Source: an uncultured Planctomycetia bacterium (GTDB lineage: Bacteria > Omnitrophota > Gorgyraeia > JABMRG01). Taken from it: a stretch of 64,000 nucleotides of DNA. A program made the translations under genes and the position numbers. Below, in pieces: positions 9,227 to 42,751 of the stretch (its first letter is position 1; each line of letters starts with the position of its first letter). The notes under the pieces were generated by a model, which worked only from the letters and a program-made list of their open reading frames with translations, searched no databases and was not told the DNA's origin. The stretch covers positions 3,488-67,487 of the forward strand of contig CAZWMG010000007.1 in NCBI GenBank assembly GCA_964634945.1. Direction: 5' to 3'.

Positions 9227-9229
9227 TTA

Positions 9230-14572: not shown

Positions 14573-14716
14573 CTATTTGCCCATTATCCTATACATGCCT
14601 GTTGTACAATCAGGGCACTTGCCCTTCATAGCTTTTCTGCCATTCTTCATTGTTACTTCCTGCGCGTCCTTCATTTCTTTCTTTGCTTTACATTTAACAC
14701 AATATGCTTCTGCCAT
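14573..14716 (-). CDS. Small zinc-ribbon protein (DUF5679-like), 47 aa: MAEAYCVKCKAKKEMKDAQEVTMKNGRKAMKGKCPDCTTGMYRIMGK
   Basis: Not in the ORF track because it is shorter than 60 aa. It has a strong SD (GAGGAGGAG) 7 nt upstream of the ATG, a CxxC...CxxC zinc ribbon, and a sigma70-like promoter directly upstream. Confidence 0.75.
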   Translation of the reverse strand: MAEAYCVKCKAKKEMKDAQEVTMKNGRKAMKGKCPDCTTGMYRIMGK

Positions 14717-14740: not shown

Positions 14741-14769
14741 ATTTTAACATACAGCCATCACTTAGTCAA
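14741..14769 (-). promoter_or_regulatory. Sigma70-type promoter for the DUF5679 gene (and probably the downstream rsfS): TTGACT-N17-TAAAAT
   Basis: Read on the minus strand: TTGACTaagtgatggctgtatgtTAAAAT, followed 24 nt later by the ATG with its SD. Confidence 0.5.
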
Positions 14770-14849: not shown

Positions 14850-16745
14850 TCATTCGTAACTAATCGCGATCTGCAGGGTCTCTTTATGCTTGTCAATACT
14901 TTTAGGAAACAGCGGAAATGGCGCCGCGTTTATCACACTCTGTAGACCCAATTCGGATAAATTCTGATCATTACCTCTATAGATCTTTGGGGTCGACGCG
15001 AGCCTGCCATAACGATCTATCTCAAAGGAGATTGTAACCTCACCATAGATAGGGATGCTTGGCCTTCTTTTCTCAACCTCTTCATTTATCATTGATACTA
15101 TAAGATCATGGTATTGATCTGGGGCCATATTGTCTGTATCGATATCTCTGCCTGTGTTTATGTCACCAAAAAATTGATCGATAGCGATATCCTGCGCAAC
15201 TTTGCCAACAGTAAGAAGATTGCTGGGTTCCTGGCCATCAATAATATGAGGAGTAAGGAATATAACCAACTCTGTCTTCTCGGGATTTGTATTATCACCA
15301 CTGCCTATAGTCCTTGAACGAAACAGGTTGCCAAGCAAGGGGATGTCTGCAAGCCCGGGTACTTCTTTTACGTTTTCCCTTATATTCTCTTCTATAAGAC
15401 CTCCTATCAGTACCGTAGCTCCGTTCTTTACCATAACTGTTGTCTCTGTTGTAGTAGTCTTTACTATAGGTATGGTATTCTGACTGCTCTCTATTACAAA
15501 ATCGCCTGTCTTTGAGCTTACTTCCGGCTTTATCTTCATCGTAACAAAATCATCGTCGTTAACAGTCGGTGTCACAATAAGCTGTATCCCTAGATCAATA
15601 AAGGTGACGTTTTCCGCTTCAATGTTTCCGGTTCCACCACTGCCCTGGCTTATTGTACGGGTAGCGTAAGGTTGATTTGTACCGACTAAAATACTTGCCT
15701 CTTCATTATTAATGACAGCTATTCTTGGAGAAGATAACAACTTTGTCTCTCCATACTCTTTTAATGCCTGGACAACAGCCTGATACCCCTCTGTGCTCAA
15801 ATTTCCTATTTGAAGAGCCCCGCCGGAACCGGATGATGTCGTAGTAGGTATAATACTGGCTTGATCCGCGTATTTTAAGCCAACTCCAAGCGTTGCTATC
15901 GCCTTGTTCATATTTGAAAATACCGCATCCCAGTTAATGCCTGTCTTGTAATCGTCATTCAGCGTTATCTGCAATATCTTTGCCTCTATGACAACTTCCT
16001 TGTGCTTCTCATCAAACGCGGTAATAACCTGATCAAAAACAGGTATCTTCTCTGAAAGATCTGTAATAATTACCTTGTTCGTACGCTCGTCTATACGCAG
16101 GCTTCCTACGTTGTCTGTGAGCATCTCACTCAACCTCTCCTTCATCTCATCAACCTTTGCGTACTGCAATGAATAGACCTTGGTCTCTAGCGGGATATCA
16201 AGCCCTTTTATTATCTTCTCCATCTCCGCTACAACCTTTGGAATATCCATAAGCACTACCGTATCAGATGTGTCATCCGCTACAACCCTTCCTATATTAG
16301 TCTTAAACTGAGAGATAGCTTTTGCTATATCCTCTGCTGTAGCATGACGAAGCTTAATAGATTTTACAATGCGCCTGTCCTCATACTTTTTACCATAGGT
16401 TAATTCATAGTCACGCTCTGTCATTACATATATTATATTATTGCGCTTTTCGAATGCGAGGCCATTTGCCGCTATGATTATCTCAAACGCTTCCCAGATA
16501 TCAACATTCTTTAGAAATAGCGTTACCTTACCTGTCACATTCTTGCCCGCAATAATATTAAGATCGCCTCTCATAGATAGGAGTCTAAAGACGTCCAGGA
16601 TGTCCATGCCTTTGATATCAAGTGAAAGCTTCTCTATGGGCTCAGTCGCCATTGAGACGCTCGTCTGCGCAGATAGGCGACTTTGCGGAACAATTATCAA
16701 TGATAAGATCAATATTGCCATTGATATCTTCTTCATTATTTTCAA
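14850..16745 (-). CDS. gspD: Type II secretion system secretin GspD, with a C-terminal extension of about 110 aa that resembles a TonB C-terminal domain
   Basis: Signal peptide, N0/N1-like domains, and a secretin domain ending in ...LFRSRTIGSGDNTNPEKTELVIFLTPHII. The extra tail contains YGEVTISFEIDRYGRLASTPKIYRGNDQNLSELGLQSVINAAPFPLFP, which matches the TonB_C pattern. Confidence 0.85.
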   Translation of the reverse strand: MKIMKKISMAILILSLIIVPQSRLSAQTSVSMATEPIEKLSLDIKGMDILDVFRLLSMRGDLNIIAGKNVTGKVTLFLKNVDIWEAFEIIIAANGLAFEKRNNIIYVMTERDYELTYGKKYEDRRIVKSIKLRHATAEDIAKAISQFKTNIGRVVADDTSDTVVLMDIPKVVAEMEKIIKGLDIPLETKVYSLQYAKVDEMKERLSEMLTDNVGSLRIDERTNKVIITDLSEKIPVFDQVITAFDEKHKEVVIEAKILQITLNDDYKTGINWDAVFSNMNKAIATLGVGLKYADQASIIPTTTSSGSGGALQIGNLSTEGYQAVVQALKEYGETKLLSSPRIAVINNEEASILVGTNQPYATRTISQGSGGTGNIEAENVTFIDLGIQLIVTPTVNDDDFVTMKIKPEVSSKTGDFVIESSQNTIPIVKTTTTETTVMVKNGATVLIGGLIEENIRENVKEVPGLADIPLLGNLFRSRTIGSGDNTNPEKTELVIFLTPHIIDGQEPSNLLTVGKVAQDIAIDQFFGDINTGRDIDTDNMAPDQYHDLIVSMINEEVEKRRPSIPIYGEVTISFEIDRYGRLASTPKIYRGNDQNLSELGLQSVINAAPFPLFPKSIDKHKETLQIAISYE

Positions 16746-16793
16746 CCCCCCGATTTTTTAGTCTTGTAACCTTGAAACTGCTTCGAATGCTTC

Positions 16794-17585
16794 TTACAAT
16801 GAAAGCGTTATGGTCTCATCATCGCTTTCCAGTATTACCCTACCGCTCTGTATCTCTTTAACCCTGATAGTATCAATCATCTCGCCTTCTTTTAAAAATA
16901 GGGTCTGCGCGTTTTTCTTATCCTCTATAATGACCTGCGGATAGTCTCCGGGTATTATACCGACCAGGCTTAAATCCTTTACCAAGTCGCGAAGGCCTGG
17001 CGCTGCTGTATCTTTTTGTTTAATATCATTCCTAATAGGCGGCGCAAAGATAGCCTTCTTACTCAGCAGCTTCTGATAATCCTCAAAGGATGCGCCGGGC
17101 CTCTCATTCTTGGGGGCCGCTTTTTTGCTGGCCCCTTTTTCAACAGGTAAAGGCTTTTCTGATTTAAGTTTTTCAGCCTCTCCTGAGTCAGAAAATGATT
17201 TTATTAGCAGCTTCAGATTTTCCACCTCCTGATCGCCTTTGCCGATCAAGGTATTAAATACAAAATATCCTGATAAAAGAACTGCAGTAATGAATAAACC
17301 AAGAATCATATAATTAATATTTAAAATAGGCTTTAATGGCTGCGGAGCCTCGTGAGCATTCTCTTCGGGATTAAGCCTATTAGCAGCACTCGATGCATTG
17401 TCACCTTGCCGCGGTTTATCGCCTTGGACCGGACCACTATCAGAACTGCGCGCGGATTTCTCTTTCTCGCGTGAAACCGCTTCCACCTTTGGCTCTTCAG
17501 CTTTTGGTTGAACAGGAATAAGGTGGTCCTTTTTTCCCTTTATCAGATGGAGCAGTTTTTCTTCGGGTGAAAATTCATTTGTCAT
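16794..17585 (-). CDS. T2SS assembly protein GspB/ExeB-like (or a GspC-like HR-domain protein). A single TM helix is followed by a periplasmic domain.
   Basis: Cytoplasmic N-terminus, one TM segment (ILGLFITAVLLSGYFVF), a low-complexity linker and a C-terminal beta-domain (LVGIIPGDYPQVIIEDKKNAQTLFLKEGEMIDTIRVKEIQSGRVILESDDETITL). This is the domain type seen in GspC HR / PilP / ExeB periplasmic regions. It lies between exeA and gspD. Confidence 0.5.
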   Translation of the reverse strand: MTNEFSPEEKLLHLIKGKKDHLIPVQPKAEEPKVEAVSREKEKSARSSDSGPVQGDKPRQGDNASSAANRLNPEENAHEAPQPLKPILNINYMILGLFITAVLLSGYFVFNTLIGKGDQEVENLKLLIKSFSDSGEAEKLKSEKPLPVEKGASKKAAPKNERPGASFEDYQKLLSKKAIFAPPIRNDIKQKDTAAPGLRDLVKDLSLVGIIPGDYPQVIIEDKKNAQTLFLKEGEMIDTIRVKEIQSGRVILESDDETITLSL

Positions 17586-17586
17586 A

Positions 17587-18411
17587 TCATCTTACCTCAC
17601 GTGCCATTATCTCTTCGATAAGACTTTCATCAACGATCTTGCTCTCTCTCATAATAAGCATCTCAAGCGCGTCATGACAAAGCATTGATATTTTCCTTGG
17701 ATAACCTTGGGTATGTTCGTATATGTGCCTTATCGCGCTATCTGTAAAAAGCTGTTCACTCTTTATGTAACCTGCCTGTTTTAACCTAAAATTGATAAGC
17801 GCCTTGGTCTCTTGTTCATCAAGTGGATTAATAATATATTTAAGATTTATCCTATCCATGAAATTTTTTATTCTTCGTATCTTTGGAAGCAGCTCTATCT
17901 GCGAGAGTATAACGAGCTGCAATAACTTATACTGATTAGTCTCGTAGTTTAAGAGTGTCCTTAATATCTCAATCTGTGTAGGGGTAAGCTTCTGCCCCTC
18001 ATCAATAAGCAAGACTATTGTTTTGTTCTCGTTAACACCTTTTTGAAACAAGTACTTCTCCAATGCGTCCTTGTAATCAAGCGTTGATCGAAATGCTGGG
18101 CTTACACCAAAGATCTTACCCAAGCTTGATAAAAACTGAAACTCAGTCTTATAGCTAGGATCAAGTATCATATGGAATATAAAATCTGACTCATCGTTAA
18201 AAAGCTGTATCAACATCCTGCTTAAGGTTGTCTTTCCTGTTCCCACATCCCCTAAAATCACATTTAACCCCCTTCGCAGACGTATGGCTATCTCTAATCT
18301 CTTTAATGCCGAGTCATGCGAAGAAGAAGGATAAAAGAACTGTGGATCAGGGCTCGTTGAAAACGGCTCTGATTGCAAATGCAATGCTTCATAATAACTC
18401 ATCTTCACCAA
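17587..18411 (-). CDS. exeA: AAA+ ATPase ExeA/GspA-like. It has only the cytoplasmic ATPase module and no peptidoglycan-binding domain.
   Basis: Walker A GDVGTGKTTL, Walker B LLIDEGQ, an ExeA-family N-terminus (ALHLQSEPFSTSPDPQFFY), and position next to gspD. Confidence 0.7.
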   Translation of the reverse strand: MVKMSYYEALHLQSEPFSTSPDPQFFYPSSSHDSALKRLEIAIRLRRGLNVILGDVGTGKTTLSRMLIQLFNDESDFIFHMILDPSYKTEFQFLSSLGKIFGVSPAFRSTLDYKDALEKYLFQKGVNENKTIVLLIDEGQKLTPTQIEILRTLLNYETNQYKLLQLVILSQIELLPKIRRIKNFMDRINLKYIINPLDEQETKALINFRLKQAGYIKSEQLFTDSAIRHIYEHTQGYPRKISMLCHDALEMLIMRESKIVDESLIEEIMAREVR

Positions 18412-18640
18412 TCCTAATGTTTACAAGTTTTCCTCTTATCTGTTCCAGAGACCTGCCCTCTTTTCGCAGGCCCCTGATGCGCTTTAGCTGCTCAACTGTT
18501 GAATCATCGAAAAATCTAAAATTCGTCTCTATGCCCCTGCTAATCTCCTTTATGAGCTCTATCTTTAGGTAAAACTTTAATGTATCTACAGAATAACCTG
18601 TTACTTGAGCAAGATCTCTTATTAAATATATATTCTTCAA
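18389..18640 (-). CDS. Small MerR-family helix-turn-helix protein, 83 aa. It has an HTH and a short coiled-coil stub but no effector domain.
   Basis: YLIRDLAQVTGYSVDTLKFYLKIELI is a typical MerR N-terminal HTH. It overlaps the exeA start by 23 nt. Confidence 0.5.
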   Translation of the reverse strand: MKNIYLIRDLAQVTGYSVDTLKFYLKIELIKEISRGIETNFRFFDDSTVEQLKRIRGLRKEGRSLEQIRGKLVNIRIGEDELL

Positions 18641-18699
18641 TTAAACCTCATTATCCGCCTACACTCTTTTTCAACTACCTATATCGTGTCCTAGTTTCA

Positions 18700-18753
18700 G
18701 CGGATTAATTCGCCCATCTTCTTGCTTTCGCAAGAAAGCAGAGGGGTTCATTA
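18700..18753 (-). repeat. Partial, inverted third copy of the GC-clamped hairpin-B module of the dual-hairpin repeat family
   Basis: The reverse complement reads TAATGAACCCCTCTGCTTTCTTGCGAAAGCAAGAAGATGGGCGAATTAA. Compare TAATGAGCCCCTATGCTTTCTTTAAGAAAGCAAGAATAGGGGTGAATTAA at 24245 and TAGTGAGCCCCTAAGTTTTCTTGCTAAAGCAAGAATAGGGGCGAATTAA at 42650. Confidence 0.55.
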
Positions 18754-18907
18754 AAATAATAAATCCAGCAGTGAGCTGGATAATTATGAGTGATCTCTAT
18801 CACTCCATAGATAGGGAGCCCACCTTCTCCCCATCTATGGAGTTAGTTTATTATATTTTTACTCTATTGTCAACTGGTTGTGAGAAAAAAACATAGAAAA
18901 ACAAGGG

Positions 18908-18935
18908 CCACTACTCCCTATATAGGGAGTAGTGG
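18908..18935 (-). terminator. Rho-independent terminator after gspM: a perfect 28-nt palindrome (CCACTACTCCCTATATAGGGAGTAGTGG) followed on the transcript by a U-rich tract
   Basis: On the minus-strand RNA the hairpin is followed by CCCUUGUUUUUCUAUGUUUUUUUC. It sits 15 nt after the gspM stop. Confidence 0.65.
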
Positions 18936-18949
18936 TTGGAAGGATTGTT

Positions 18950-19483
18950 TCATTTTATTGCCAGTTTAGATATGAGCATGGAAGACCTTATGGCTACACC
19001 TTGCTGGCTACTCCTGGTATTGAGACTCAGCTTTTCAATCTTAAGCATCTGTCCGGAATTTTTAATGCGGTATATAAACTGCATAAGCGCATTCATGTCT
19101 GATTCAGTTTCTATCTCAACAGTAAACTTGCTATAATAATCCTTATGGCGTGGTGGCTTTGGCCTCATGCTTGTAATGCTAAGGCCTGAACCGCTGGCAG
19201 CCTTTTCGATCTCATCCAGTATAAGAGTTATGTCCTGCTCATCACTCCCTTTAGACTTAAGTTTTTTCTCATATTTTAGATACTCAGCATCTACCTTCTG
19301 CTTATCTTTTATAAGCGAGAGTGACTTTTTTAATTTTACCTTGACAATCTCTATTCTGCTATTGGCGCTGTGCCACCTCATAAAAAGTGGCTCTATTAAA
19401 AAATTATAACATAGCCCTATAATCGTAACTATGACTACGCTAACAAGTATCCTCTTTTCACGTTTTGACATTTTCTTCAGCAT
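18950..19483 (-). CDS. gspM: T2SS protein GspM (PilO-like)
   Basis: Short cytoplasmic N-terminus, a single TM helix (ILVSVVIVTIIGLCYNFLI), a periplasmic coiled coil plus ferredoxin-like domain, the right size (177 aa), and position right after gspL. Confidence 0.6.
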   Translation of the reverse strand: MLKKMSKREKRILVSVVIVTIIGLCYNFLIEPLFMRWHSANSRIEIVKVKLKKSLSLIKDKQKVDAEYLKYEKKLKSKGSDEQDITLILDEIEKAASGSGLSITSMRPKPPRHKDYYSKFTVEIETESDMNALMQFIYRIKNSGQMLKIEKLSLNTRSSQQGVAIRSSMLISKLAIK

Positions 19484-19529
19484 CTGTTATGGGTAGCCTT
19501 TCTGAGCATTAAAGACTGTTTTCGAATAC

Positions 19530-21011
19530 TTACTCTACAAAATTACAGCTTATTTGAAAGCCTACCATAGCAGACCCCCTTGTTCTTTTTTCAGCAACAG
19601 ATCGTGTCTGTACATTACTAAAACTCTCTGAGCTCTCAAGCAAAGTTACAAGCTTGAATACCTCTGAAATCTTTTGCGCTCTCCCGCGAAACCTGACCAC
19701 CTTGGATGTATCATCATAGTTAAAATCACTTAGATATATATTCCCCGGTATTATACTGTAAAGATTATATATAGCATTCAATGATGATGCTTCACCTGAA
19801 AGTTGCGCTTTTATGCTCCGTAACTTCTTAAATTTTGCCTCCGTCTGGTTAGCTGCCGATTCTACCTGAGAATACATCAATTTCAGTTCACTGAGAAGCG
19901 CTTCTCTCTGCCATATCTTTAAACCCACGAGTCCGAATAAAACTAAAAAAAGGATAGATAGCGCAACTGAAATATTTATAACTCTTTTGAAAGTAACGGT
20001 TGTGCTCTGTTTCTTCTTTTGCTTTTGAGAAATAAGATTAATGCCTTCCACAGCAAATGGCCCACCATATACTGTGCATATCGAGGCATCCTGTGGCACA
20101 CCTGCTTCTGTTATTGCCTCACCCTCAAAAGATGATTTTCTTAAGACATTTATTACTTTGCAAGGAGTGTTAATTCTGGTCGCAAAAAACTCCTTAAAGT
20201 CTTCAATGACAGAGCCGGCTCCGGTTATAACAAACTCTGATATATCCACCGCTGCCATAGCCTTCTCTTTAAAATGCGCGGCTATTGAGCGCTTTATCTC
20301 ATCTGCGAGTTTCTCCTTTGGCGAATTGCCTTTTTCCTTCTGCTTTGATATATCCAGTGCGCCTATAGAGATTGACCTGCTAAAATTAGGCCTTCCATCA
20401 GAAACTATTACTATCTCAGTGCTATTACTATCTATATCTATCAGACAGATGATCTTCCCCTGCTTTATCAACCCTTTTACTGTATTGAGCCACCCCATTA
20501 TAGCCTCTGAGCTCAATCTTATCTGCCTAAGCCTACTAACCAGGGCGCCTAATACGCGATTGATCCTCGCTATCTCATTCTTTGGAGAGATAACTAGCAT
20601 GACACTAGAATAACCTTCCTCGTCACTGCCCAACACTTCGTAATCTGATATAATCTCGTCTTCAGAGTATGGTGTCTGCTTCGCTGTCTCAAATGATACC
20701 ATCTTCTCTATCTCTGACCTATCTAGAGTAGGAAGGCGCATATACCTTACCATGGCCTTCTCCCTTGATATGATAGCGGTAACAGCTTCAGGCCTTATGC
20801 CTCTGCTGCTTACAGTATCATTCAATAACTTAGCTGTCTCTTCTTCAGATAGTCCGTATACAGATTCGACTAAAAGATTGGTTACGATAGGCCCCCTTGG
20901 GGTAATTTGTGATTCCAGGATTTTGAGATACTTGCTATCTACCTGTATATAGAGGTGCGGTCTTTTAGATATGATAAATGGGAAATTCAATTTTACTACT
21001 CCTGATACCAA
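19530..21011 (-). CDS. gspL: T2SS protein GspL: an actin-like cytoplasmic domain (PilM-like), a TM helix and a periplasmic PilN-like domain
   Basis: Actin-like ATPase-fold region (ICLIDIDSNSTEIVIVSDG ... ITGAGSVIEDF), TM segment VALSILFLVLFGLVGL, then a periplasmic domain. It sits between gspK and gspM. Confidence 0.65.
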   Translation of the reverse strand: MVSGVVKLNFPFIISKRPHLYIQVDSKYLKILESQITPRGPIVTNLLVESVYGLSEEETAKLLNDTVSSRGIRPEAVTAIISREKAMVRYMRLPTLDRSEIEKMVSFETAKQTPYSEDEIISDYEVLGSDEEGYSSVMLVISPKNEIARINRVLGALVSRLRQIRLSSEAIMGWLNTVKGLIKQGKIICLIDIDSNSTEIVIVSDGRPNFSRSISIGALDISKQKEKGNSPKEKLADEIKRSIAAHFKEKAMAAVDISEFVITGAGSVIEDFKEFFATRINTPCKVINVLRKSSFEGEAITEAGVPQDASICTVYGGPFAVEGINLISQKQKKKQSTTVTFKRVINISVALSILFLVLFGLVGLKIWQREALLSELKLMYSQVESAANQTEAKFKKLRSIKAQLSGEASSLNAIYNLYSIIPGNIYLSDFNYDDTSKVVRFRGRAQKISEVFKLVTLLESSESFSNVQTRSVAEKRTRGSAMVGFQISCNFVE

Positions 21012-22147
21012 TATTTGATTAAAGGCGGCTTATCCTTGTCCTTAAAACTGTATACCGCCTCCAATCTCATCTTTACCCTTTTTACCCGAGCTAACACTAT
21101 TGCGCGATATGTATCTGAAGTAACTCGAAACTGTGGGCTTAAACCTGAGATAAGGCCCCTTACCCTGCTATATTCATCAGTTGTTATACCATAGATATTA
21201 GCATACCATTGTCCATCTTGCAAATTCTTTATTTCAACAAGCCCTTCTTTTCCTCTATCTGTTATAGTTGAACCATAGGAAAACCAGGCATCATCACTTG
21301 TGCCGATAAGGTCATCCTCACCTCTCCTATAATCCATTATTTTTGACGCAAGATTAGTAAAATCCGGGCCAAAGAGAGCGCTTAGGACCGGTTCGCTAGC
21401 GCTATTGATATTTATTTTTCCGCTGCCAAAGACTGTGATATATGGCTTAATCATATTAAGAACTTTTGAGTCAACCCCCCTTACAAGCAGGAGCTCATAT
21501 ATTGTATTGAAATCTGAATCTTTACAATCGTATCGCTCCGGGAGGCCTTGGTAATACATATCCTCAGCACCATAGAGAAGCCTGTTCTCGGAAGACATGA
21601 CAAGATCATCTTTATCGCGCCAGTCCAATATCGCCCCGGCTATCTCTGCCGCATTATCCTCATCAATATTAAAATATACCAACAGATTATTTAGCGTCTC
21701 CTCAGTAACCATATTGAGATTAATCTTTGATTCTTCATCCATAAGGCCATATAACGTAACAGGCGCATCTTCACCCTGATCAAACAAGGGGTATTCATAA
21801 CTTACTGTATAGCTTCCATCTCCGAAAGGATGCCTGTCAAAAAGCGCCTTATTATTTGCCCATGGCTGGCTCAAGGCATCGATGCCTACTGAAAGGTTTT
21901 TTTTGTATTCAAGCTTTTTCTCTGATATTACACGTGTAATGCCAGCACGCGCTATGAAATAGGCCTTTATCTTGTCTATATCATAAGATGTAAGCTTAAG
22001 TGTAATAGCAGACTGTCTTCCTATGCTCACGGCAAATACGGCAAGTATGGCAACCATCCAAAGAGAGGCTATAAGTATTACACCTTTTTCGGTTTTAGGT
22101 TTTATGTTTTTGGTTGTCGTCTTATAATGCATAATCGCTCTTTTCAC
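20996..22147 (-). CDS. gspK: T2SS minor pseudopilin GspK
   Basis: N-terminus GVILIASLWMVAILAVFAVSIG is the GspK-type hydrophobic segment lacking the conserved Glu5. It is large (383 aa), has a KININSASEPVLSALFG HhH-like motif typical of GspK, and follows gspJ. Confidence 0.7.
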   Translation of the reverse strand: MKRAIMHYKTTTKNIKPKTEKGVILIASLWMVAILAVFAVSIGRQSAITLKLTSYDIDKIKAYFIARAGITRVISEKKLEYKKNLSVGIDALSQPWANNKALFDRHPFGDGSYTVSYEYPLFDQGEDAPVTLYGLMDEESKINLNMVTEETLNNLLVYFNIDEDNAAEIAGAILDWRDKDDLVMSSENRLLYGAEDMYYQGLPERYDCKDSDFNTIYELLLVRGVDSKVLNMIKPYITVFGSGKININSASEPVLSALFGPDFTNLASKIMDYRRGEDDLIGTSDDAWFSYGSTITDRGKEGLVEIKNLQDGQWYANIYGITTDEYSRVRGLISGLSPQFRVTSDTYRAIVLARVKRVKMRLEAVYSFKDKDKPPLIKYWYQE

Positions 22148-22149
22148 TA

Positions 22150-22860
22150 CTACGTTGCCGATACACTAACTTCTCCCGATAGAATATCCGTAAGCCTACC
22201 TGCTGGGATACAAATCTGTCTAGAGAATGTTTTCTGTCTACCATCTATAGATTCTGATACCGAAATATCTATCTTTACCCCAAGCGGTAATCCATTTCCT
22301 GTTTCCCATAGATCGATCCATTCATACTCCGCGGCAGTGGGCTCCTCATCAATATTTTGCGCTGTTTGATACAGATCGAGATATAAATAAGTACATTTAA
22401 AATCAGAGATGCCCTCAAGAATAACATTGCCTTCTTTTACGGGTATATCGAAAAGCCCTCCTTCAACATCATCATCTAACATAAAAAGTGAAGCAAGCGC
22501 ATCTTTTAAAGGCTCTACTTCTCTTATCAGGGCCTGGCCCTTATCATTACCTTTTAAATAATAACTTACACGCCCCACATTTATATCCGCGCTATCACTC
22601 TCAGTCAATGTAGTTACAAAAGAAACTTTATCATTATAGCCTTCAAAGGGTAAGTTGGATATATAGACCATATTCCTAACATCCCTTGTCAGCTTTAGAA
22701 AAACGTGCCTTACTCTCTGTTGAAATTCCGCTTCCTGCTCAATACGTCTGTAGGAGATAATGCCTCCTCGAAAACATGAGTATAATACAACAGCTATCAA
22801 AGAGAATATAACTACTGATACCAAAAGCTCAATTAATGTGAACGCCTTTTCTCTATTCAT
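22150..22860 (-). CDS. gspJ: T2SS minor pseudopilin GspJ
   Basis: Prepilin-type N-terminus KAFTLIELLVSVVIFSLIAVV, size 236 aa, and position between gspI and gspK. Confidence 0.55.
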   Translation of the reverse strand: MNREKAFTLIELLVSVVIFSLIAVVLYSCFRGGIISYRRIEQEAEFQQRVRHVFLKLTRDVRNMVYISNLPFEGYNDKVSFVTTLTESDSADINVGRVSYYLKGNDKGQALIREVEPLKDALASLFMLDDDVEGGLFDIPVKEGNVILEGISDFKCTYLYLDLYQTAQNIDEEPTAAEYEWIDLWETGNGLPLGVKIDISVSESIDGRQKTFSRQICIPAGRLTDILSGEVSVSAT

Positions 22861-23285
22861 TCTTCCTCATCTTCATTAGGAATCGGCACATAAGTCAATA
22901 TATCTATCTTTCTTTCAAAGCCTCTCGCCTGCCAAGACAGCGAAGCGGCGAATCGTTCTATTTCAAGGTCTTCCTGATCATATTCTTCACCTTTATCATC
23001 ACTTGTAAGAGGGGATGTTTGGCTTCTTAGCTGGAAACCCTCATCCATAAAAACCGCGTTCTCCTCTAAGAAAGGTGGGGCGCCTTCTTCTGAATCAAGA
23101 AGAAGCTCAAGGCCAAAGGCCCTGTTCTTTAATATGAGAATAGCCTCACGATAACCATTAGATAATGAGACCGCTTTCAGTGATGAGGTAAACGCGTGGT
23201 TAATAAAAACAATAGAAACAGCGACTATAACAACTGTTATCAGAACCTCGATCAGCAAGAATGCCTTATTCTTCAATATAATCAT
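22857..23285 (-). CDS. gspI: T2SS minor pseudopilin GspI
   Basis: Prepilin-type N-terminus KAFLLIEVLITVVIVAVSIV, 142 aa, between gspH and gspJ. Confidence 0.55.
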   Translation of the reverse strand: MIILKNKAFLLIEVLITVVIVAVSIVFINHAFTSSLKAVSLSNGYREAILILKNRAFGLELLLDSEEGAPPFLEENAVFMDEGFQLRSQTSPLTSDDKGEEYDQEDLEIERFAASLSWQARGFERKIDILTYVPIPNEDEEE

Positions 23286-23844
23286 AAACTTTTATCAGGC
23301 CTGTGCCTGCTTCTATCGAAATTACGATGGTTTTGTTCTCTTTGCCAACAAGGTATATCTTAGTGAAATCCGTATCACCATCAGGCGAAAAGTCTACTAC
23401 GCTATTACCTGTCTTAATTTCTATGCCACTGGGCATCCTAAAAGATCTGCCCCAGCGCTCCTTCAGCGGCTTAAAAGTTTTATTTTCTTCATCTTTTACA
23501 AAAACCCTATAAAAGCAATTTTGAGCATCTATAACAAGCCTGTAATCTCTCCTTTCAAATACCGCTCTTTCAAGACAAAATTTTGCCGTATACGCGATGT
23601 TTTTAGCAGAGGTTGTAAGTTTAAGATCCTCATAGGTTCTTCTGAAGATGGGGGTAGATAAAGCTACAAGGGCAAGAATAATTGCGGCAACCAGCATCAG
23701 CTCCAGTAGAGTAAAGGCATAATTGGATCTCGAATCTTTGGTTTCCGGTATGCGATGCTTAACTTTAGATAGACACCGAAAGCCTAACATCAAACGCCTC
23801 CTCAATAGACTACTCTTTAATAACTTCCCAGTTGACAATATCAT
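23266..23844 (-). CDS. gspH: T2SS minor pseudopilin GspH
   Basis: Prepilin motif YAFTLLELMLVAAIILALVA, 192 aa (the true start may be a later Met), directly after gspG. Confidence 0.55.
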   Translation of the reverse strand: MILSTGKLLKSSLLRRRLMLGFRCLSKVKHRIPETKDSRSNYAFTLLELMLVAAIILALVALSTPIFRRTYEDLKLTTSAKNIAYTAKFCLERAVFERRDYRLVIDAQNCFYRVFVKDEENKTFKPLKERWGRSFRMPSGIEIKTGNSVVDFSPDGDTDFTKIYLVGKENKTIVISIEAGTGLIKVYDYIEE

Positions 23845-24238
23845 CTGAGCTCTCTATCCCATCTGCTCCATATGAAAATAGATCGTAGTCGTGAAGATTA
23901 TGCGTTCCTGGAGATATATAGTTATAAGGATTGCCCCAAGGGTCTTTAGGGGTCTTTTTTATATATGGGCCTTTCCAATTAGGGGGGCTGGGCGGGGAGG
24001 GGGGCATTTTTCTCAAAGCCACAAGCCCCTGCTCAGTTGAAGGATATATTCCATTATCAAGCTCGTAAAGATCCAATGCTGTAGCAAGGTGCGCCTCTAT
24101 CTGGGCCTGTGCTGCCGCAAAACGCGCCTCCTGCGATCTACCAACAAGGCGTGGCACAACCAACGCGACAAGCACACTTATAATAATCACAACAAGCATA
24201 AGTTCTATTAAAGTAAAACCACTTTTTTTCATCTTCAT
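23810..24238 (-). CDS. gspG: T2SS major pseudopilin GspG
   Basis: MKMKKSGFTLIELMLVVIIISVLVALVVP is the canonical GspG N-terminus (G|F cleavage site, Glu+5). It has a GspG-type C-terminal domain carrying a PPSPPSPP insertion. SD AAGGAG is 6 nt upstream. Confidence 0.85.
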   Translation of the reverse strand: MKMKKSGFTLIELMLVVIIISVLVALVVPRLVGRSQEARFAAAQAQIEAHLATALDLYELDNGIYPSTEQGLVALRKMPPSPPSPPNWKGPYIKKTPKDPWGNPYNYISPGTHNLHDYDLFSYGADGIESSDDIVNWEVIKE

Positions 24239-24244
24239 CTCCTT

Positions 24245-24334
24245 AATGAGCCCCTATGCTTTCTTTAAGAAAGCAAGAATAGGGGTGAATTAACCCCCGT
24301 CGCTTTGTTTCGCAAAGCGAAACAGCGGGGGTAA
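24245..24334. repeat. Dual GC-clamped hairpin intergenic element, copy 1: hairpin B (CCCCTA...TAGGGG) and hairpin A (CCCCCG...CGGGGG). It lies between the lacI-family gene stop and the gspG start.
   Basis: About 85% identical over about 90 nt to 42650..42737. The inner stems differ but stay palindromic: TGTTTCGC/GCGAAACA here versus TGTTTAGC/GCTAAACA in copy 2. Confidence 0.65.
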
Positions 24335-24354
24335 CAACTACCCACAACTTAGAC

Positions 24355-24374
24355 CTGCCTGCCGGCAGGCAGGG
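24355..24374. repeat. Perfect 20-nt GC-rich palindrome CCTGCCTGCCGGCAGGCAGG, nested inside a 10-bp outer inverted repeat (CACAACTTAG / CTAAGTTGTG). It lies just downstream of the lacI-family gene and is a likely terminator.
   Basis: Seen directly. Related CCTGCC-N-GGCAGG palindromes occur at 32518..32536 and 55173..55191. Confidence 0.5.
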
Positions 24375-24410
24375 AGTGAAACGAACTAAGTTGTGCAGCC
24401 GAATTAGAAT

Positions 24411-25415
24411 CTATAATTTGGCGCAAGATTTTCGTTCTATAAGTTTTGCTTCCAATAAGATCTTCAAAGGTTGCTTTTTCTTGCCTGATACTATCTGGTT
24501 TAATAATTCAACGCCCATCCTTCCCATCTCCGCGATAGGCTGCCATACAGTCGTTAATGCAACAGGTGAATATGAGCATAGTGGATTATCATCGAAACCT
24601 ACAATTGATATATCATCGGGAATCTTTAATCCCTTCTTCCGAGCGACATCCATCGCCTCCATAGCCATTACATCACTTGCGCAAAATACAGCGGTGGGGG
24701 GATCTTTAAGCGCTAATAGGTGCTCCATTGCCTTCTTGGCCGGTGAACGCAGATAATGGCCTACTGTAATATAATTCGTGCTCAGCTTCAAGCCATTCGA
24801 CTTAAGAGCAGCCTTAAAGCCCTCAAGACGCTTCTTACCGGATTCCGTTGAAAGGTCCCCTGCTATCGTAGCGATATTTTTATGTCCTAATTTTACAAGA
24901 TATTCCACTATATCGATAGCCGCTTTTTCATTATTAATGGCAATAGAATTTACAGGCTCTTTTTCAAAAGAATTATTTAAGACCATGCAAGGCACTTTTC
25001 TCGCAAGAATCTTTTTGAGCTGCTGTCTATCACTATTTATGTCGGCAAAAAGTATCGCGTCTATATACTCTGGGCTTAACGCGCTGCTTGTAAGCCAATC
25101 TTCGTGCTTTTGCCTTTCGCTTATATGTATAATAATATCTATCTTGAGCCTGCTTGCCGCAAGCACTACACCTTTTATAACCTTTGTGGCATAAAAAGAG
25201 TGGAATATATCCTCAAACTGAGGAACGATAAGGCCAAAGACCTTGCCTTTTTTGCGCTTTATGGCAGGACTCACAGAGGCGTTAAGTTTCATGGACTTTA
25301 TAACATCTTCAACCTTTTTCCTCTCAAGTGACTTTACATTAGGGGCCCCTTGCATAACCCTTGAAACGACCATTGACGAAACATTTGCTTTTTTTGCGAT
25401 ATCACTTATCTTCAC
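24411..25415 (-). CDS. LacI-family transcriptional regulator, embedded between gspF and gspG
   Basis: N-terminal LacI HTH (MKISDIAKKANVSSMVVSRVMQG) and a periplasmic-binding-protein-like sugar-binding core. Confidence 0.85.
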   Translation of the reverse strand: MKISDIAKKANVSSMVVSRVMQGAPNVKSLERKKVEDVIKSMKLNASVSPAIKRKKGKVFGLIVPQFEDIFHSFYATKVIKGVVLAASRLKIDIIIHISERQKHEDWLTSSALSPEYIDAILFADINSDRQQLKKILARKVPCMVLNNSFEKEPVNSIAINNEKAAIDIVEYLVKLGHKNIATIAGDLSTESGKKRLEGFKAALKSNGLKLSTNYITVGHYLRSPAKKAMEHLLALKDPPTAVFCASDVMAMEAMDVARKKGLKIPDDISIVGFDDNPLCSYSPVALTTVWQPIAEMGRMGVELLNQIVSGKKKQPLKILLEAKLIERKSCAKL

Positions 25416-25450
25416 TTTGTACCCCTTTTTTAATAAATCCTTATTCCTAT

Positions 25451-26668
25451 TTATCGTATCATTAAATTTAACTGAAATATTGGCAAAAGCATGGCGATAA
25501 CAATGAAACCAACTACAATACCCATAAAAAGTATAAGTCCTGGCTCAAGCAATGATGTAATTGCCTTTGTTGCGCGGTCAATCTCGGTATCATAGGCATC
25601 CGCGATCTTGAAAAGTGATTTTTCTAGCGTCCCGCTCTCTTCGCCGACAGCTATCATATTTGTTACCATCACGGGGAAATGTCCGCTCTTTTTTACGCTT
25701 ATTGATAAAGGAGCGCCTTCGACAACATCCTTTTTTGCCTCTTCCATGTCGTGCCTTATAACTGTATTCCCTAATGTAGAAGACGCTACACCCAACGCTT
25801 GTATAATAGGTACGCCATTACCGATAAGCGTGCCCAGTGTTCTGCCAAATCTAGCGATCTCTACCTTTTGAACAAAAGAACCCAAGAGTGGCACCTTAAG
25901 CTTTATCGCGTCAAAAGCAGCCTTACCATCTTCTGTTTTTAACCACCGACTAAAAGCCGTTATGGTAATAACAACAACAATTATCATCAGTATCCAGAAC
26001 CTTGCGAAAAAACTGCTTATGCCAATCAGTATCTTTGTTGGCAATGGCAAGGCCTGGCCAAGATCAATAAAGATTGATGTAAGCCTAGGTGCTACAAAAC
26101 TTAGGAGTACAAATATTGTAATAAATCCTACAAACGCCATCAGAGCCGGGTATGCCATACTGGCACGTACTTTTGAGATGCTCTCTTCGTCCTTCTCCAT
26201 GAAATCACTGAGGCGCCTTAAAACATTTTCCAGGCTACCGCTTATTTCACCGGCCGCTACCATACTAACATAGAGCACGGAGAATACTTTAGGATATTTT
26301 GCCAAAGCCGCTGAAAATGTAACGCCACCCCTGACATCATCGCGTATAAGCCCTATCGTATGCCTTAAATGCGGGCTTTCACTCTGCTCCATTAATACAC
26401 TTAGGCCGTTTAGCATGGTCATGCCCGAATCGAGCAGATTGGAAAGCTGTCTGGTAAAATTGCTCAGGTCACGCAGCCTAATAGACTTGAAAAACAGAAA
26501 TCTTCCTTTTGACTTTTTAATAAAAGCAGCTGTCTCTTCTTCAATTGAAAGAACAAAAAGCCCCATGGAGCTAAGCTTTGCAGCTGCCTGGTTCTGATTC
26601 TCCGCTTCTATCTTTCCTTCTTTAATCTCTGCAGGTCCGCGTTTCGCTTTATAGATATATCTTGGCAT
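25451..26668 (-). CDS. gspF: T2SS inner-membrane platform protein GspF (PilC family)
   Basis: 405 aa with two repeated GspF domains and 3 TM helices. It immediately follows gspE. Confidence 0.85.
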   Translation of the reverse strand: MPRYIYKAKRGPAEIKEGKIEAENQNQAAAKLSSMGLFVLSIEEETAAFIKKSKGRFLFFKSIRLRDLSNFTRQLSNLLDSGMTMLNGLSVLMEQSESPHLRHTIGLIRDDVRGGVTFSAALAKYPKVFSVLYVSMVAAGEISGSLENVLRRLSDFMEKDEESISKVRASMAYPALMAFVGFITIFVLLSFVAPRLTSIFIDLGQALPLPTKILIGISSFFARFWILMIIVVVITITAFSRWLKTEDGKAAFDAIKLKVPLLGSFVQKVEIARFGRTLGTLIGNGVPIIQALGVASSTLGNTVIRHDMEEAKKDVVEGAPLSISVKKSGHFPVMVTNMIAVGEESGTLEKSLFKIADAYDTEIDRATKAITSLLEPGLILFMGIVVGFIVIAMLLPIFQLNLMIR

Positions 26669-26670
26669 AT

Positions 26671-28395
26671 CTACTCTTCTGCTTCTATTTCAGTAACGCG
26701 CAGGACTTCTCTTATTGTAGTAATGCCCGCTTCAACCTTAGCCATGCCATTATTAAATAATGTTCTCATGCCATTCTTTAATGCTCGTTCTTTTATTTCG
26801 TTTATCGGCGCTCTTTTAAGCACAAGATCTCGTGTCTGATCATCTAAAACAAGTATCTCGTAAATTGCTGTCCTGCCTTTAAAGCCGGTAAATTTACATG
26901 ATTCACAGCCTTTGCCTTCAAAGAATATCCTCTTCTGGTTAGGGTCAAGATTGAGATCCTTAAGCAGCTCTTTATCCGGGATAACTTCTTCCCTGCATTT
27001 ATCACATATCACCCTTACCAGCCTCTGTGCTATAGCCGCTTCTATTGAGCTTGAAACAAGGTATGGTTCAATGCCCATATCAATTAATCTTGTTATGGCA
27101 CCTGCCGCATCATTAGTATGTAAGGTTGAAAAGACAAGATGCCCGGTAAGGGCAACCCTTATGGCTATCTCTGCTGTCTCAAGGTCTCTTATCTCACCGA
27201 CCATCATAATATCCGGATCATGACGCAGCATTGAGCGTAATCCCGTACCAAAGGTGAGCCCGACTTTTGTATTGACCTGTATCTGGGTAATCCCTCTTAA
27301 CTGGTACTCGATAGGATCTTCTATGGTTATAATGTTCTTACTCGCGTCGTTAATCTTGCTTAAACAGGCATAGAGCGTTGTCGTCTTCCCGCTTCCTGTA
27401 GGGCCGGTAACGAGTAATATACCGTGAGGCTTTCCTATAATATCTTCTATAACATTTAGGTCATCTCCAAAAAGGCCTAATTTTTCAAGTCCCATAAGTA
27501 TGCTGCCGCTCAATATTCTTATATGCACACTCTCACCATATGAAGTTGGAATGACTGATACCCTGAGGTCAAGCTCCTCGTCTGATATCTTTAATTTTAT
27601 TCTGCCATCCTGAGGAAGGCGCCTCTCGGCGATATTTAACGCGGACATTATCTTTACACGCGAAACTATAGCTGAGTGCAGGTATTTTATTGTTGGTGGG
27701 ATGCTAGCATTGAACAAGACTCCATCAACGCGGTATCTGATACGGAGCTCACCTTCAAACGGCTCTATATGTATATCTGTTGCCCTTTCAGTAACAGCCT
27801 GATGGAGCACCTGATTTACAAATTTTATAATTGAGGCGTCATCTGCCATATCATCAATATCGCTGGATGCCTCAAGCTGTGTAGGCCCGGAATCCTCTAC
27901 ATCAGCCTGCCCCATAATCTTTTCTACTGTCTCAGCGCCAACTCCATAGTATCTCTTTATAGACTCGAGTATATCCTTCTCACCTGACAATACAGGCTCT
28001 ATATCATATTTAAGGACAAGTTTTATATCATCCAATATCGCGAGATCAAGGGGATTTGTTACAGCGATTGTCAGTTTTACACCTTTAAGACTTATCGGGA
28101 TTATTTTATAATAACAGGCAAATTTAGCGGGAACCTTCTCAATAATTTCTGGCTCTATATCAAGATCTTTTAATCTTTTATATGGAAAACCTATTTGACG
28201 GGAGAGCGTTATTAGGACCTGCTCTTCGGTCGCAAACCCAAGATCGACAATAGTATTACCGATTAAGCTACCCGTTATCTGCTGCTCTGAAAGCGCCTTT
28301 TCAAGCTGCTTAGCAGTTATTACTTGATCCTCGAGAAGTATCTCACCTAATTTTCTATCAGGTCTTGACATTGAATTACCTCTTTTATATAACAC
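26671..28395 (-). CDS. gspE: T2SS ATPase GspE
   Basis: N-terminal T2SSE_N domain, Walker A GPTGSGKTTTLYA, Asp/His boxes, and the tetracysteine motif CDKC...CESC typical of GspE. Confidence 0.9.
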   Translation of the reverse strand: MLYKRGNSMSRPDRKLGEILLEDQVITAKQLEKALSEQQITGSLIGNTIVDLGFATEEQVLITLSRQIGFPYKRLKDLDIEPEIIEKVPAKFACYYKIIPISLKGVKLTIAVTNPLDLAILDDIKLVLKYDIEPVLSGEKDILESIKRYYGVGAETVEKIMGQADVEDSGPTQLEASSDIDDMADDASIIKFVNQVLHQAVTERATDIHIEPFEGELRIRYRVDGVLFNASIPPTIKYLHSAIVSRVKIMSALNIAERRLPQDGRIKLKISDEELDLRVSVIPTSYGESVHIRILSGSILMGLEKLGLFGDDLNVIEDIIGKPHGILLVTGPTGSGKTTTLYACLSKINDASKNIITIEDPIEYQLRGITQIQVNTKVGLTFGTGLRSMLRHDPDIMMVGEIRDLETAEIAIRVALTGHLVFSTLHTNDAAGAITRLIDMGIEPYLVSSSIEAAIAQRLVRVICDKCREEVIPDKELLKDLNLDPNQKRIFFEGKGCESCKFTGFKGRTAIYEILVLDDQTRDLVLKRAPINEIKERALKNGMRTLFNNGMAKVEAGITTIREVLRVTEIEAEE

Positions 28396-41594: not shown

Positions 41595-41606
41595 TTGCTC
41601 TTTAGC

Positions 41607-42636: not shown

Positions 42637-42649
42637 AAAACGCCTCCTT

Positions 42650-42737: not shown

Positions 42738-42751
42738 AGTTCAATTATATA

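Follow-up and report, generated by a model that had tools for sequence, protein, structure and literature searches.

A TonB/TolA C-terminal-type domain tethered to the secretin of a T2SS-like locus typical of Candidatus Omnitrophota

Introduction

In type II secretion systems (T2SS), GspD secretins can carry an S-domain that is paired with a pilotin (PulD/PulS, GspD/AspS). In type IVa pili, an N-terminal AMIN module of PilQ and a LysM ring of TsaP occupy a comparable place, and in systems with a GspA/GspB pair (ExeA/ExeB, OutB; PMC9239104, PMC4098917) the gene of an AAA+ ATPase is followed by that of a bitopic HR-domain protein, directly upstream of the secretin gene. Here we describe a secretin gene cluster on a 64,000-nucleotide stretch of DNA from an uncultured bacterium of the Omnitrophota lineage (assembly GCA_964634945.1, contig CAZWMG010000007.1, positions 3,488 to 67,487; this whole stretch is called the window below). 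The secretin of this cluster ends in a domain of the type found at the C-terminus of TonB and TolA, which we refer to as the tail.

The T2SS with S-domain and pilotin shares with this locus the N0-N3 and pore domains of the secretin, an extra C-terminal module, GspG and GspK pseudopilins, and GspE and GspF, but the module found here is a folded TonB/TolA-type domain on a linker of 30-130 residues and not a helical one. The PilQ/TsaP system shares an envelope-anchoring module in or around the secretin and a PilM/N/O platform; in contrast, the module here is C-terminal and has another fold, and there is no retraction ATPase in the cluster. Pfam scans of the secretin found no S-domain, AMIN or LysM. 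The order of ATPase gene, HR-protein gene and secretin gene is that of the GspA/GspB pair. HR domains of GspC and GspB bind the N0 domain of the secretin, GspB of Dickeya anchors the secretin to the inner membrane and, via a C-terminal extension, to peptidoglycan, and GspB homologues act with either the GspA ATPase or a pilotin (PMC9239104). Unlike in that pair, no hydrophobic segment was seen by eye in the ATPase encoded here (no transmembrane predictor was run) and it has no peptidoglycan-binding domain, the HR protein lacks the peptidoglycan extension, and the ATPase gene has a MerR-like gene translationally coupled to it.

With the C-terminal domains of TonB and TolA (PF03544, PF13103; PDB 6sly, 5lw8, 1lr0, 2gsk) the tail shares fold and sequence signature, and those tails that have long linkers also share the charged, proline-containing spacer that precedes the domain. 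In TonB and TolA, it is an N-terminal transmembrane helix with an SHLS motif that contacts the motor, and the C-terminal domains bind targets by beta-strand addition (PMC12204202). The tail, in contrast, has neither the N-terminal membrane helix nor a motor contact, and its tether runs inward from an outer-membrane protein.

A conserved T2SS-like locus has been described beside giant genes in Omnitrophota, with more than 10 subunits, gspD/E/F, rcpC and a Rotamase_2 isomerase (West-Roberts et al., 10.1101/2023.11.21.568195). The phylum is the same and a Rotamase_2 gene is likewise nearby here, but the window contains no giant gene; a secretin tail, TonB, MerR and LacI go unmentioned in that study. 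A 2026 preprint reports that 'TonB C-terminal domain' genes flank giant genes and draws no link to secretins, which are also absent from a 2025 study on the evolution of TonB/TolA. The open-access literature searched yielded no description of secretin-TonB fusions, of Omnitrophota secretins or of a link between ExeA and MerR. The secretin-TonB fusion is visible in automatic domain annotations, yet undescribed within the searchable open-access literature.

Results

The secretin ends in a TonB/TolA-type domain

Gene identities were assigned from Pfam and NCBIfam profile scans, with the curated NCBIfam cutoffs as yardstick. The secretin has a hydrophobic N-terminus, two Secretin_N domains (3.6e-22, 78.8 bits against a cutoff of 28.2) and a Secretin domain at residues 327-503 (5.5e-46, 156.7 bits against a cutoff of 27.5), which places it in superfamily PF00263; its STN match (3.4e-6, 27.2 bits) lies just below the cutoff of 28.4. 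It reaches the cutoff of neither class-specific model, with 240.2 bits for the GspD equivalog TIGR02517 (cutoff 351.35) and 255.8 bits for the PilQ model TIGR02515 (cutoff 284.35), so that the two scores are about equal and slightly higher for PilQ.

The initial annotation had proposed that this secretin carries a TonB_C-like C-terminal module, and the tail sequence that it quoted is present. A scan of the whole secretin gave no match to TonB_C at E<=0.1. When the tail was scanned alone, TonB_C (PF03544) was its sole Pfam match, below the gathering cutoff (E=0.0087, 16.9 bits, cutoff 24.6), and TonB of H. pylori was the sole match among PDB sequences, at an E-value of about 0.6. The homologues described below share the consensus YY..v...I......P....GEV.vsF....dG.L...P........L......sv..AAPFPpFP........F.I.ISYE (117 of 120), and in an alignment of 40 tails TonB_C was matched by 33 sequences (E<0.01, best 1.2e-8) and TonB_2 (PF13103) by 31 (best 2.9e-10). 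The profile of this alignment matched the C-terminal domain of H. pylori TonB in the PDB (5lw8) over the whole domain, with E=7.8e-7.

The predicted structure agrees with the family-level matches. An AlphaFold2 model of the tail, with the tail alignment as input, reached a pLDDT of 93.1 and a pTM of 0.81, with the order helix (3-20), strand (29-38), strand (48-51), helix (55-68), strand (82-91). In a Foldseek search of the PDB, ranks 1-23 were all C-terminal domains of TonB, TolA, HasB or FusB (top 6sly, E=1.1e-4, TM 0.75). The tail thus models neither as a disordered linker nor as an S-domain. We consider its TonB/TolA-type identity firm because the relatives turn a weak single-sequence signal into a match at the level of family and fold.

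In a model of the full-length secretin, built with 67 homologues and numbered from the 628-residue form starting at the ATG at 16736, N0-N3 and the pore span residues 36-499. Confidence is low at 502-530 (pLDDT 35-42), and the tail domain follows at 539-627 with pLDDT 79-91. Across homologues the linker has about 30-130 residues, is not conserved in sequence and is rich in K, E and P where it is long; there is no membrane helix between pore domain and tail. The secretin closes with ~90 residues that form a TonB/TolA C-terminal-type domain, tethered and folding independently. Of the longer span of about 110 residues originally attributed to the module, this folded domain stands, while the stretch that precedes it is linker (Table 1).

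The tail is widespread in Omnitrophota and repeatedly lost

The 120 best secretin homologues are 40-100% identical to the query, and all named ones belong to Candidatus Omnitrophota. The conserved C-terminal ~90 residues are kept in 117 of them and the remaining three are fragments. One homologue is named 'energy transducer TonB' by NCBI, and several have precomputed matches to PF03544 or PF13103.

We then took a census of loci, for which one genome per species of the Genome Taxonomy Database (GTDB) was scanned with the full-length secretin alignment; this yielded 80 further loci (loci and proteins are cited below by L and P numbers). The search patterns were family-specific, and the result is silent on other phyla. 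Record titles were almost all Omnitrophota. Several records (ENA and other) bear the names Planctomycetia, Planctomycetales, Patescibacteria or unclassified bacterium, which we take to be placeholders or mis-binning. Among 84 secretin ORFs in the loci, the tail was fused in 67 and encoded as a separate ORF directly downstream in 2, while 5 ORFs were cut by a contig end, 1 was a second paralogue and 9 were genuinely tail-less. The tail, fused or split, is therefore present in 69 of the 79 complete secretin ORFs and is not peculiar to one genome.

In a neighbor-joining tree of pore regions, tail-less secretins occupied at least 4-5 separate places, a scatter that indicates repeated independent loss. 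Downstream of the tail-less secretins we found nothing consistent that could compensate: two had amidase-like lipoproteins, and the others had gspE or unrelated ORFs. These two lipoproteins (L064:11436-12515 and L076:11429-12532) directly follow the secretin gene, resemble N-acetylmuramoyl-L-alanine amidases by motifs only, and are a possible alternative link to the cell wall.

A search of 1.84 billion representative proteins with the tail profile returned 738 proteins at E<=1e-10. They include a T2SS-like secretin with three tandem TonB_C domains (P0121) and a Tad-type secretin (T2SS-T3SS_pil_N plus Secretin) with two (P0207), the latter encoded in an RcpC-secretin-CpaE/CpaF cluster (L084:994-7247). 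Judged by the inspected subset of the 738, the pairing of a secretin with a TonB-type domain is recurrent. Tandem arrays of three to five TonB_C/TonB_2 domains also occur in P0122, P0137, P0138, P0145 and P0192, one of which has TPR repeats; P0137 is from Omnitrophota.

Relation of the tail to TonB proteins and to the ExbB/ExbD set of the window

At L029:11246-14037 and L056:18508-21236, the gene of a TonB-like protein of 226-237 residues comes directly after that of a TonB-dependent receptor with Plug and barrel. By these sequences, TonB-dependent receptors exist in some Omnitrophota. Each of the two TonB-like proteins carries a hydrophobic helix at its N-terminus, and the tail profile finds their C-terminal domains with E-values of 1e-19 and 1e-15. 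Because such membrane-anchored proteins match the tail profile, and because the long linkers resemble the K/E/P-rich spacers of TonB, the tail most likely goes back to a TonB paralogue whose periplasmic part became fused to the secretin.

The window has a TonB protein of its own. At 40890-45217, the gene of an 821-residue TPR protein is followed by those of ExbB, ExbD and a 234-residue TonB_C protein, a layout that resembles Tol or Ton systems. Among the annotated ORFs adjoining this set, none was recognized as TolB, Pal or a TonB-dependent receptor, and the TonB-dependent receptor of L056, used as query, had no match among the window ORFs. The window's own TonB was considered as the source of the tail and rejected, since it is not matched by the tail profile even at E<=10.

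The initial annotation had suggested that the tail might couple the secretin to this ExbB/ExbD/TonB set, with the proton-motive force then acting on the channel. The window does encode a complete ExbB, ExbD and TonB_C set, and TonB C-terminal domains can dimerize by strand exchange, as TonB crystal structures show. But contact with the motor needs the N-terminal SHLS helix (PMC12204202), and the tail hangs from an outer-membrane protein and has no such helix, which argues against energized coupling. The window's TonB moreover falls outside the tail subfamily, and the two loci lie 25 kb apart with unrelated genes between them. The proposal thus found no support, and we regard such coupling as highly improbable.

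The tail as a proposed passive docking or anchoring module

By analogy with the TonB/TolA domains and with the anchoring parts of other secretin systems, the tail most likely serves passively for docking or anchoring. It would lie in the periplasm on the outer face of the barrel, the place of the S-domain in secretins of classical T2SS, and would grip an envelope partner by beta-strand addition, as TonB/TolA domains do; the partner may be a protein strand or possibly peptidoglycan. The tail would thereby supply the scaffold role otherwise played by S-domain/pilotin pairs, by the AMIN domains of PilQ or by the peptidoglycan-binding parts of GspA/GspB. It would not itself be energized, since a membrane helix for contact with ExbB/ExbD is missing. 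The case for an anchor is indirect: the tail is read in this way because the ATPase and the HR protein have no cell-wall-binding part, the secretin has no S-domain or AMIN, and no pilotin-like gene was recognized among the Pfam/NCBIfam-annotated ORFs in and around the locus, a result obtained with no dedicated pilotin search.

A module in this position could also hold the secretin together from within. The tails might bind one another or the neighboring barrel and form an outer ring that staples the multimer, substituting for the S-domain and needing no outside partner. The tail does occupy the sequence position of the S-domain, its extreme C-terminal strand is strongly conserved (the I-S-Y-E end), and some relatives have three tandem copies (P0121). 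A long, variable linker that is predicted to be disordered fits a tether that reaches out better than a tight staple, however, and the tail has repeatedly been lost while the secretin was kept; we find a staple distinctly unlikely.

The partner gripped by the tail could instead be a TonB box. The tail would then work as a receptor that captures the N-terminal TonB-box strand of a transporter, of cargo or of a giant surface protein, and the outcome would be uptake channels or substrates clustered round the secretion pore, or competition with an energized TonB. This fits the nearest relatives of the tail, which are the C-terminal domains of the TonB-like proteins encoded right after the TonB-dependent receptors of L029 and L056, the latter of which has a TonB-box-like LEKIVVTP near its N-terminus. 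The occurrence of the same domain on a Tad-type secretin, and in 3-5 tandem copies elsewhere, is typical of a binding module, and T2SS-like loci of Omnitrophota lie near giant surface proteins (10.1101/2023.11.21.568195; L003). Yet no TonB-dependent receptor was recognized in the window, a receptor lies within 10 kb in only 2 related loci with no conserved linkage, the cluster's own proteins show no TonB-box-like motif specific to tail-bearing loci, and a TonB domain that is not energized would block a transporter and not drive it. We hold this capture of TonB boxes to be unlikely.

In one study, C-termini of T2S and T3S secretins were not surface exposed, while those of the type IV pilus secretins BfpB and PilQ were found to be extracellular (PMC4453517). 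The tail might lie on the cell surface round the opening of the pore and serve, as adhesin or receptor, the host- or prey-attached life of Omnitrophota, a lineage described as predatory or host-dependent (10.1101/2023.11.21.568195), and the slightly higher score of the PilQ model over the GspD model points in the same direction. All characterized TonB/TolA C-terminal domains act in the periplasm (PMC12204202), however, and the system has pseudopilins of the GspG/GspK type. There is also no known route across the membrane for a folded 90-residue domain on a linker of up to 130 residues. A surface location is therefore, in our view, very unlikely, and a passive anchor on the periplasmic side is the reading that we carry forward.

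A MerR-like gene and a promoter palindrome head the putative secretin unit

The small protein encoded upstream of the ATPase gene matches MerR_1 at profile positions 1-65 of 69 (48.5 bits, cutoff 21.6). The NCBIfam MerR equivalogs score far below their cutoffs and are matched over only the first ~70 positions, with a weak match to HspR. The protein has 83 residues and neither the long coiled-coil dimerization helix nor a C-terminal effector-binding region. All 74 homologues are 68-99 residues long, and the named ones come from Omnitrophota except for one metagenome-assembled genome labeled Dehalococcoidia. A truncated MerR-like gene overlapping exeA had initially been described here: the overlap with the ATPase gene exists (23 nt, or 14 nt with an ATG start) and the gene precedes the ATPase gene in nearly every locus, but given the uniform length of the homologues it is not truncated.

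The start of this gene is unusual in places. In 10 of 60 loci (L029, L033, L036, L038, L041, L044, L051, L056, L073, L080) there is no ATG, GTG or TTG between the in-frame stop and the helix-turn-helix (HTH) region, and only ATT or ATC stands at the aligned start, behind a good GGAGG; TTG is the start codon of the copy in the window. As a rule, this regulator seems to have a weak start codon.

We found a 16-bp palindrome, CTC[CT]CTA-NN-TAG[GA]GAG, conserved upstream of merR across the phylum (L002-L083), where it occurs with <=1 mismatch in 51 of 62 loci. The strict form has 44 matches in 1.18 Mb of related loci, all 44 of them <=340 nt upstream of merR, against 0 in 20 shuffles. Among 48 fully covered loci, the motif is present in 43 of the 46 with merR and in neither of the 2 without it. 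The window has three copies (O1-O3, at 18803-18935) and none elsewhere in its 64 kb. O1, the strict match CTCCCTATATAGGGAG, lies inside the strong terminator-like hairpin after pilO, the terminator that the initial annotation had reported, and O2 and O3 directly follow the -10 box of a sigma-70-like promoter (Table 1). At 26 of the 44 strict sites the palindrome has TTGAC 25-27 nt upstream and shares its first two bases with a TATACT-like -10 box; in this geometry it covers the expected transcription start. This differs from other MerR-type sites in that the palindrome reaches into the -10 box and over the start instead of lying in a 19-20-bp spacer. The hairpins of the lacI-gspG and pilO-merR spacers were also considered as one repeat family, which alignment and pattern search did not support, and an Rfam scan of the window found only a tRNA.

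By their position, the O2 and O3 palindromes are candidate operators of the MerR-like protein, which most likely acts as a repressor through the promoter palindrome and autoregulates its own unit. Small or effector-less regulators of the MerR family are known in BldC of Streptomyces and in HspR with its HAIR inverted repeat. The MerR-like protein shares with them the winged HTH without effector domain and an inverted repeat at its own promoter, but it has only 83 residues and no long dimerization helix, and it appears dedicated to the secretin operon, with its gene coupled to that of a GspA-like ATPase.

The GspA-like ATPase and the HR protein

The ATPase matches AAA_22 with 58.6 bits (cutoff 27), as a cytoplasmic AAA+ protein would, and TIGR03015 with 174 bits, below cutoff. 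The initial annotation had noted an ExeA without a peptidoglycan-binding domain; indeed, only P-loop families were matched in Pfam, with AAA_22 the only domain in 274 residues, and the short form is kept in relatives (223-271 residues).

The protein that follows had been labeled ExeB, and its family profile points elsewhere. Members of the family have a cytoplasmic N-terminal SPEEKLLxLI motif, one membrane helix, a variable linker and a C-terminal domain, and over its last 60 residues the profile matched the HR domain of GspC in the PDB (3oss_C, E=7.5e-5), with weaker matches to GspC 7oio and 2lnv. As a single sequence, the protein gives weak Pfam matches to T2SSB and T2SSC, below cutoff. It is thus an HR-domain protein of the GspB/GspC type, and it ends at the HR domain, with neither the PDZ domain or coiled coil of GspC nor a C-terminal peptidoglycan-binding extension. 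In the alignment, nothing in the HR protein was seen to vary with the presence of the tail. The ATPase likely docks on the HR protein, and with the overlap of merR and ATPase gene such docking might, speculatively, form a feedback link to expression.

A conserved Omnitrophota cluster with a clade-specific LacI gene

The cluster consists of 14 minus-strand ORFs in one orientation at 14850-28395, with short gaps or overlaps; all the ORFs of the initial annotation were recovered at the coordinates it gave. Only two gaps exceed 50 nt, lacI-gspG (172 nt) and pilO-merR (309 nt). The inventory comprises 12 secretion genes and 2 regulators, one LacI-family and one small MerR-like, instead of the thirteen Gsp components first counted (Table 1). 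Measured against the full T2SS part list, D, E, F, G and K are recognizable, H, I and J by the N_methyl motif only (these positions are also filled in relatives, with faint T2SSJ matches there), a PilM-PilN fusion stands in for L, and M resembles PilO. The T2SS had been called complete; strictly it is not, since no prepilin peptidase (peptidase A24) homologue was found in the 64-kb window and no PDZ-type GspC in the cluster; a related locus, L003, has a prepilin peptidase homologue ~8 kb away. GspE narrowly misses the cutoff of TIGR02533 (622.7 bits, cutoff 630.25), and its N-terminal ~70 residues pass that of the c-di-GMP motif NF053729 (54.4 bits, cutoff 38); by this MshEN-type motif, c-di-GMP may switch the secretion machine.

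The locus had also been taken for a rearranged one. Three relatives with 68%, 52% and 42% secretin identity have the same order, (E)-F-G-H-I-J-K-PilMN-PilO-MerR-AAA_22-HR protein-secretin, and the run from MerR to secretin is kept phylum-wide in Omnitrophota loci; compared with its relatives the locus is not rearranged. The locus is a T2SS-like (T2SS/type IV pilus hybrid) cluster typical of Candidatus Omnitrophota. It would comprise two or more transcription units, the first running gspE-gspF-(lacI)-gspG-H-I-J-K-pilMN-pilO and the second, from its own sigma-70-like promoter, encoding the MerR-like protein, the GspA-like ATPase, the GspB/GspC-like HR protein and the secretin.

Table 1. Features of the secretin cluster and of the ExbB/ExbD set, in window coordinates
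Feature	Coordinates	Strand	Basis or remark
gspE-type assembly ATPase, N-terminal MshEN/c-di-GMP-binding domain	26671-28395	-	Pfam T2SSE 1.8e-134, MshEN 9.4e-17
gspF platform protein	25451-26668	-	Pfam T2SSF 4.9e-59, two repeats
LacI-family regulator, gspF-gspG junction	24411-25415	-	LacI HTH 4.5e-10, Peripla_BP_3 9.7e-36
lacI-gspG spacer, 172 nt, three consecutive hairpins	24239-24410	-	
GC-rich perfect palindrome TGCCTGCCGGCAGGCA, central CG	24356-24371	-	in lacI-gspG spacer
gspG major pseudopilin	23810-24238	-	Pfam T2SSG 3.3e-33; TIGR01710 153 bits, cutoff 88.85
Three minor pseudopilins, GspH/I/J positions	23266-23844, 22857-23285, 22150-22860	-	N_methyl motif only, E 1.4e-8 to 0.024
gspK minor pseudopilin	20996-22147	-	Pfam T2SSK_1st 8.3e-14; NF037980 93.7 bits, cutoff 130 not reached
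PilM-PilN fusion, GspL equivalent	19530-21011	-	Pfam PilM_2 3.7e-11, PilN 1.6e-9
PilO/GspM-type platform protein	18950-19483	-	Pfam PilO and T2SSM_b, both 4.5e-9
28-bp perfect palindrome, terminator-like hairpin after pilO	18908-18935	-	12-bp stem, T-rich tail (terminator scan)
Motif copy O1 inside hairpin, CTCCCTATATAGGGAG	18914-18929	-	strict match
Sigma-70-like promoter of merR-gspA-gspB-secretin, TTGACA, 17-nt spacer, TAAACT	18845-18873	-	10/12 consensus matches
Motif copies O2 and O3	18827-18842 (O2), 18803-18818 (O3)	-	directly downstream of -10 box; relaxed matches
Small MerR-like HTH protein, 83 aa	18389-18640	-	Pfam MerR_1 9.3e-13
GspA/ExeA/MshM-like AAA+ ATPase, 274 aa	17587-18411	-	Pfam AAA_22 1.1e-15
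GspB/GspC-like bitopic protein, 263 aa	16794-17585	-	family-profile match to GspC HR domain
Secretin ORF, 631 aa, tail included	14850-16745	-	Pfam Secretin, Secretin_N, STN
Secretin proper: signal peptide, N0/STN, N1-N3, pore domain	15237-16745	-	Pfam and AlphaFold domain boundaries
Low-complexity linker, pore domain to tail	15123-15236	-	pLDDT 35-42 in full-length model
TonB/TolA C-terminal-type domain, secretin C-terminus	14853-15122	-	profile, AlphaFold, Foldseek
ExbB	42004-42636		
ExbD	41607-42014		
TonB_C protein, 234 aa	40890-41594		

A LacI gene indeed lies between gspF and gspG, as initially annotated. Its product belongs to the LacI/GalR family (LacI HTH 39.6 bits, cutoff 27; Peripla_BP_3 123.8 bits, cutoff 26.5) and reaches the cutoff of no NCBIfam equivalog. 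The gene is present at this junction in the window and 8 related loci and absent from 24 loci that cover the junction. The carriers form one clade with no non-carrier inside, within which secretin identity goes down to about 50%, and this distribution indicates a single retained insertion. LacI would thus be a later, clade-specific addition that probably places part of the machine under the control of a small ligand, possibly a sugar. The gap of 35 nt between gspF and lacI has no terminator-like site. The palindrome TGCCTGCCGGCAGGCA of the lacI-gspG spacer occurs only in LacI-bearing loci (5 of 9; besides the window, L001:15727, L004:2430, L007:2579 and L013:15285), at two unrelated positions, either in this spacer or between argS and an mfd-like gene. 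It may serve as operator for LacI or may be a palindromic element of this clade. No glycoside hydrolase was found among the scanned window ORFs, and the rest of the window holds housekeeping genes.

Further genes lie downstream of the secretin. At 14573-14716, directly downstream, is a 47-residue cysteine-rich DUF5679 ORF with a strong ribosome-binding site and a promoter-like site at 14741-14769, conserved at this place in relatives (L001, L085-L087). At 14208-14480, rsfS appears split over two frames (14349-14480 and 14208-14327), either as a frameshift pseudogene or through an assembly error; L001 has an intact 117-residue RsfS at the same position. A few kilobases downstream of the secretin, at 8246-10114, two adjacent genes encode SurA-like peptidyl-prolyl isomerases (Rotamase_2), as in L001, which may be chaperones for outer-membrane proteins including the secretin.

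Discussion

Taken as a whole, we read the locus as a phylum-typical cluster of two or more transcription units, in which the secretin tail would be a passive periplasmic anchor, the MerR-like protein would autoregulate the secretin unit and LacI would have been added later. We give this combined reading about an even chance of being right.

Several points weigh against it. A candidate partner for the tail did not emerge from the analysis, and no difference is visible between the HR-domain proteins of tail-bearing and tail-less loci. The tail of the window itself scores under the Pfam gathering cutoff for TonB_C. The periplasmic location of the tail is assumed, while the C-termini of two type IV pilus secretins have been reported as extracellular (PMC4453517), and the about equal scores of the secretin for the PilQ and GspD models bear on this assumption. 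With at least 4-5 independent losses, the tail is an accessory whose role may be subtle. On the regulatory side, binding of the palindrome by the MerR-like protein is read only from adjacency and co-occurrence, and TGCCTGCCGGCAGGCA is not established as a LacI operator, lying at two positions and in only 5 of 9 loci.

The tail and the regulator could also belong to one broader scheme. The C-terminal domain of TonB would then be a general accessory of Omnitrophota secretins, T2SS-like and Tad-type, in single or tandem copies, which grips TonB-box-like strands of outer-membrane proteins, such as receptors or the anchors of giant surface proteins, and wires secretion to uptake or attachment. In addition, an effector-less MerR-like repressor would bind the 16-bp operator, and the GspA-like ATPase, docked on the GspB-like protein, would release or sequester it, so that expression reports secretin assembly. 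We consider this joint scheme unlikely.

What is new here is, as far as the searched literature goes, the phylum-wide combination of a known pore with a known domain, together with a newly noticed pair of a dedicated regulator and its putative operator, the MerR-like protein and the palindrome. The anatomy is solid; function rests on inference. For annotation, at least one such secretin is publicly named 'energy transducer TonB', and secretins of the present type may be what was reported next to giant genes as 'TonB C-terminal domain' genes. The MerR-like protein and its exclusive palindrome form a testable regulatory unit for secretin expression, and a soluble domain of ~90 residues with a predicted fold at pLDDT 93.1 offers a handle on the contacts of the secretin in ultra-small, host-dependent bacteria. 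The targeting, stabilizing and anchoring of secretins has been solved differently in each system studied, with pilotins and S-domains, AMIN domains, TsaP or GspA/GspB. A tethered TonB/TolA-type domain would be a further solution, spread across an uncultured phylum and present on two classes of secretin, in which the C-terminal fold of TonB would be employed outside energy transduction.

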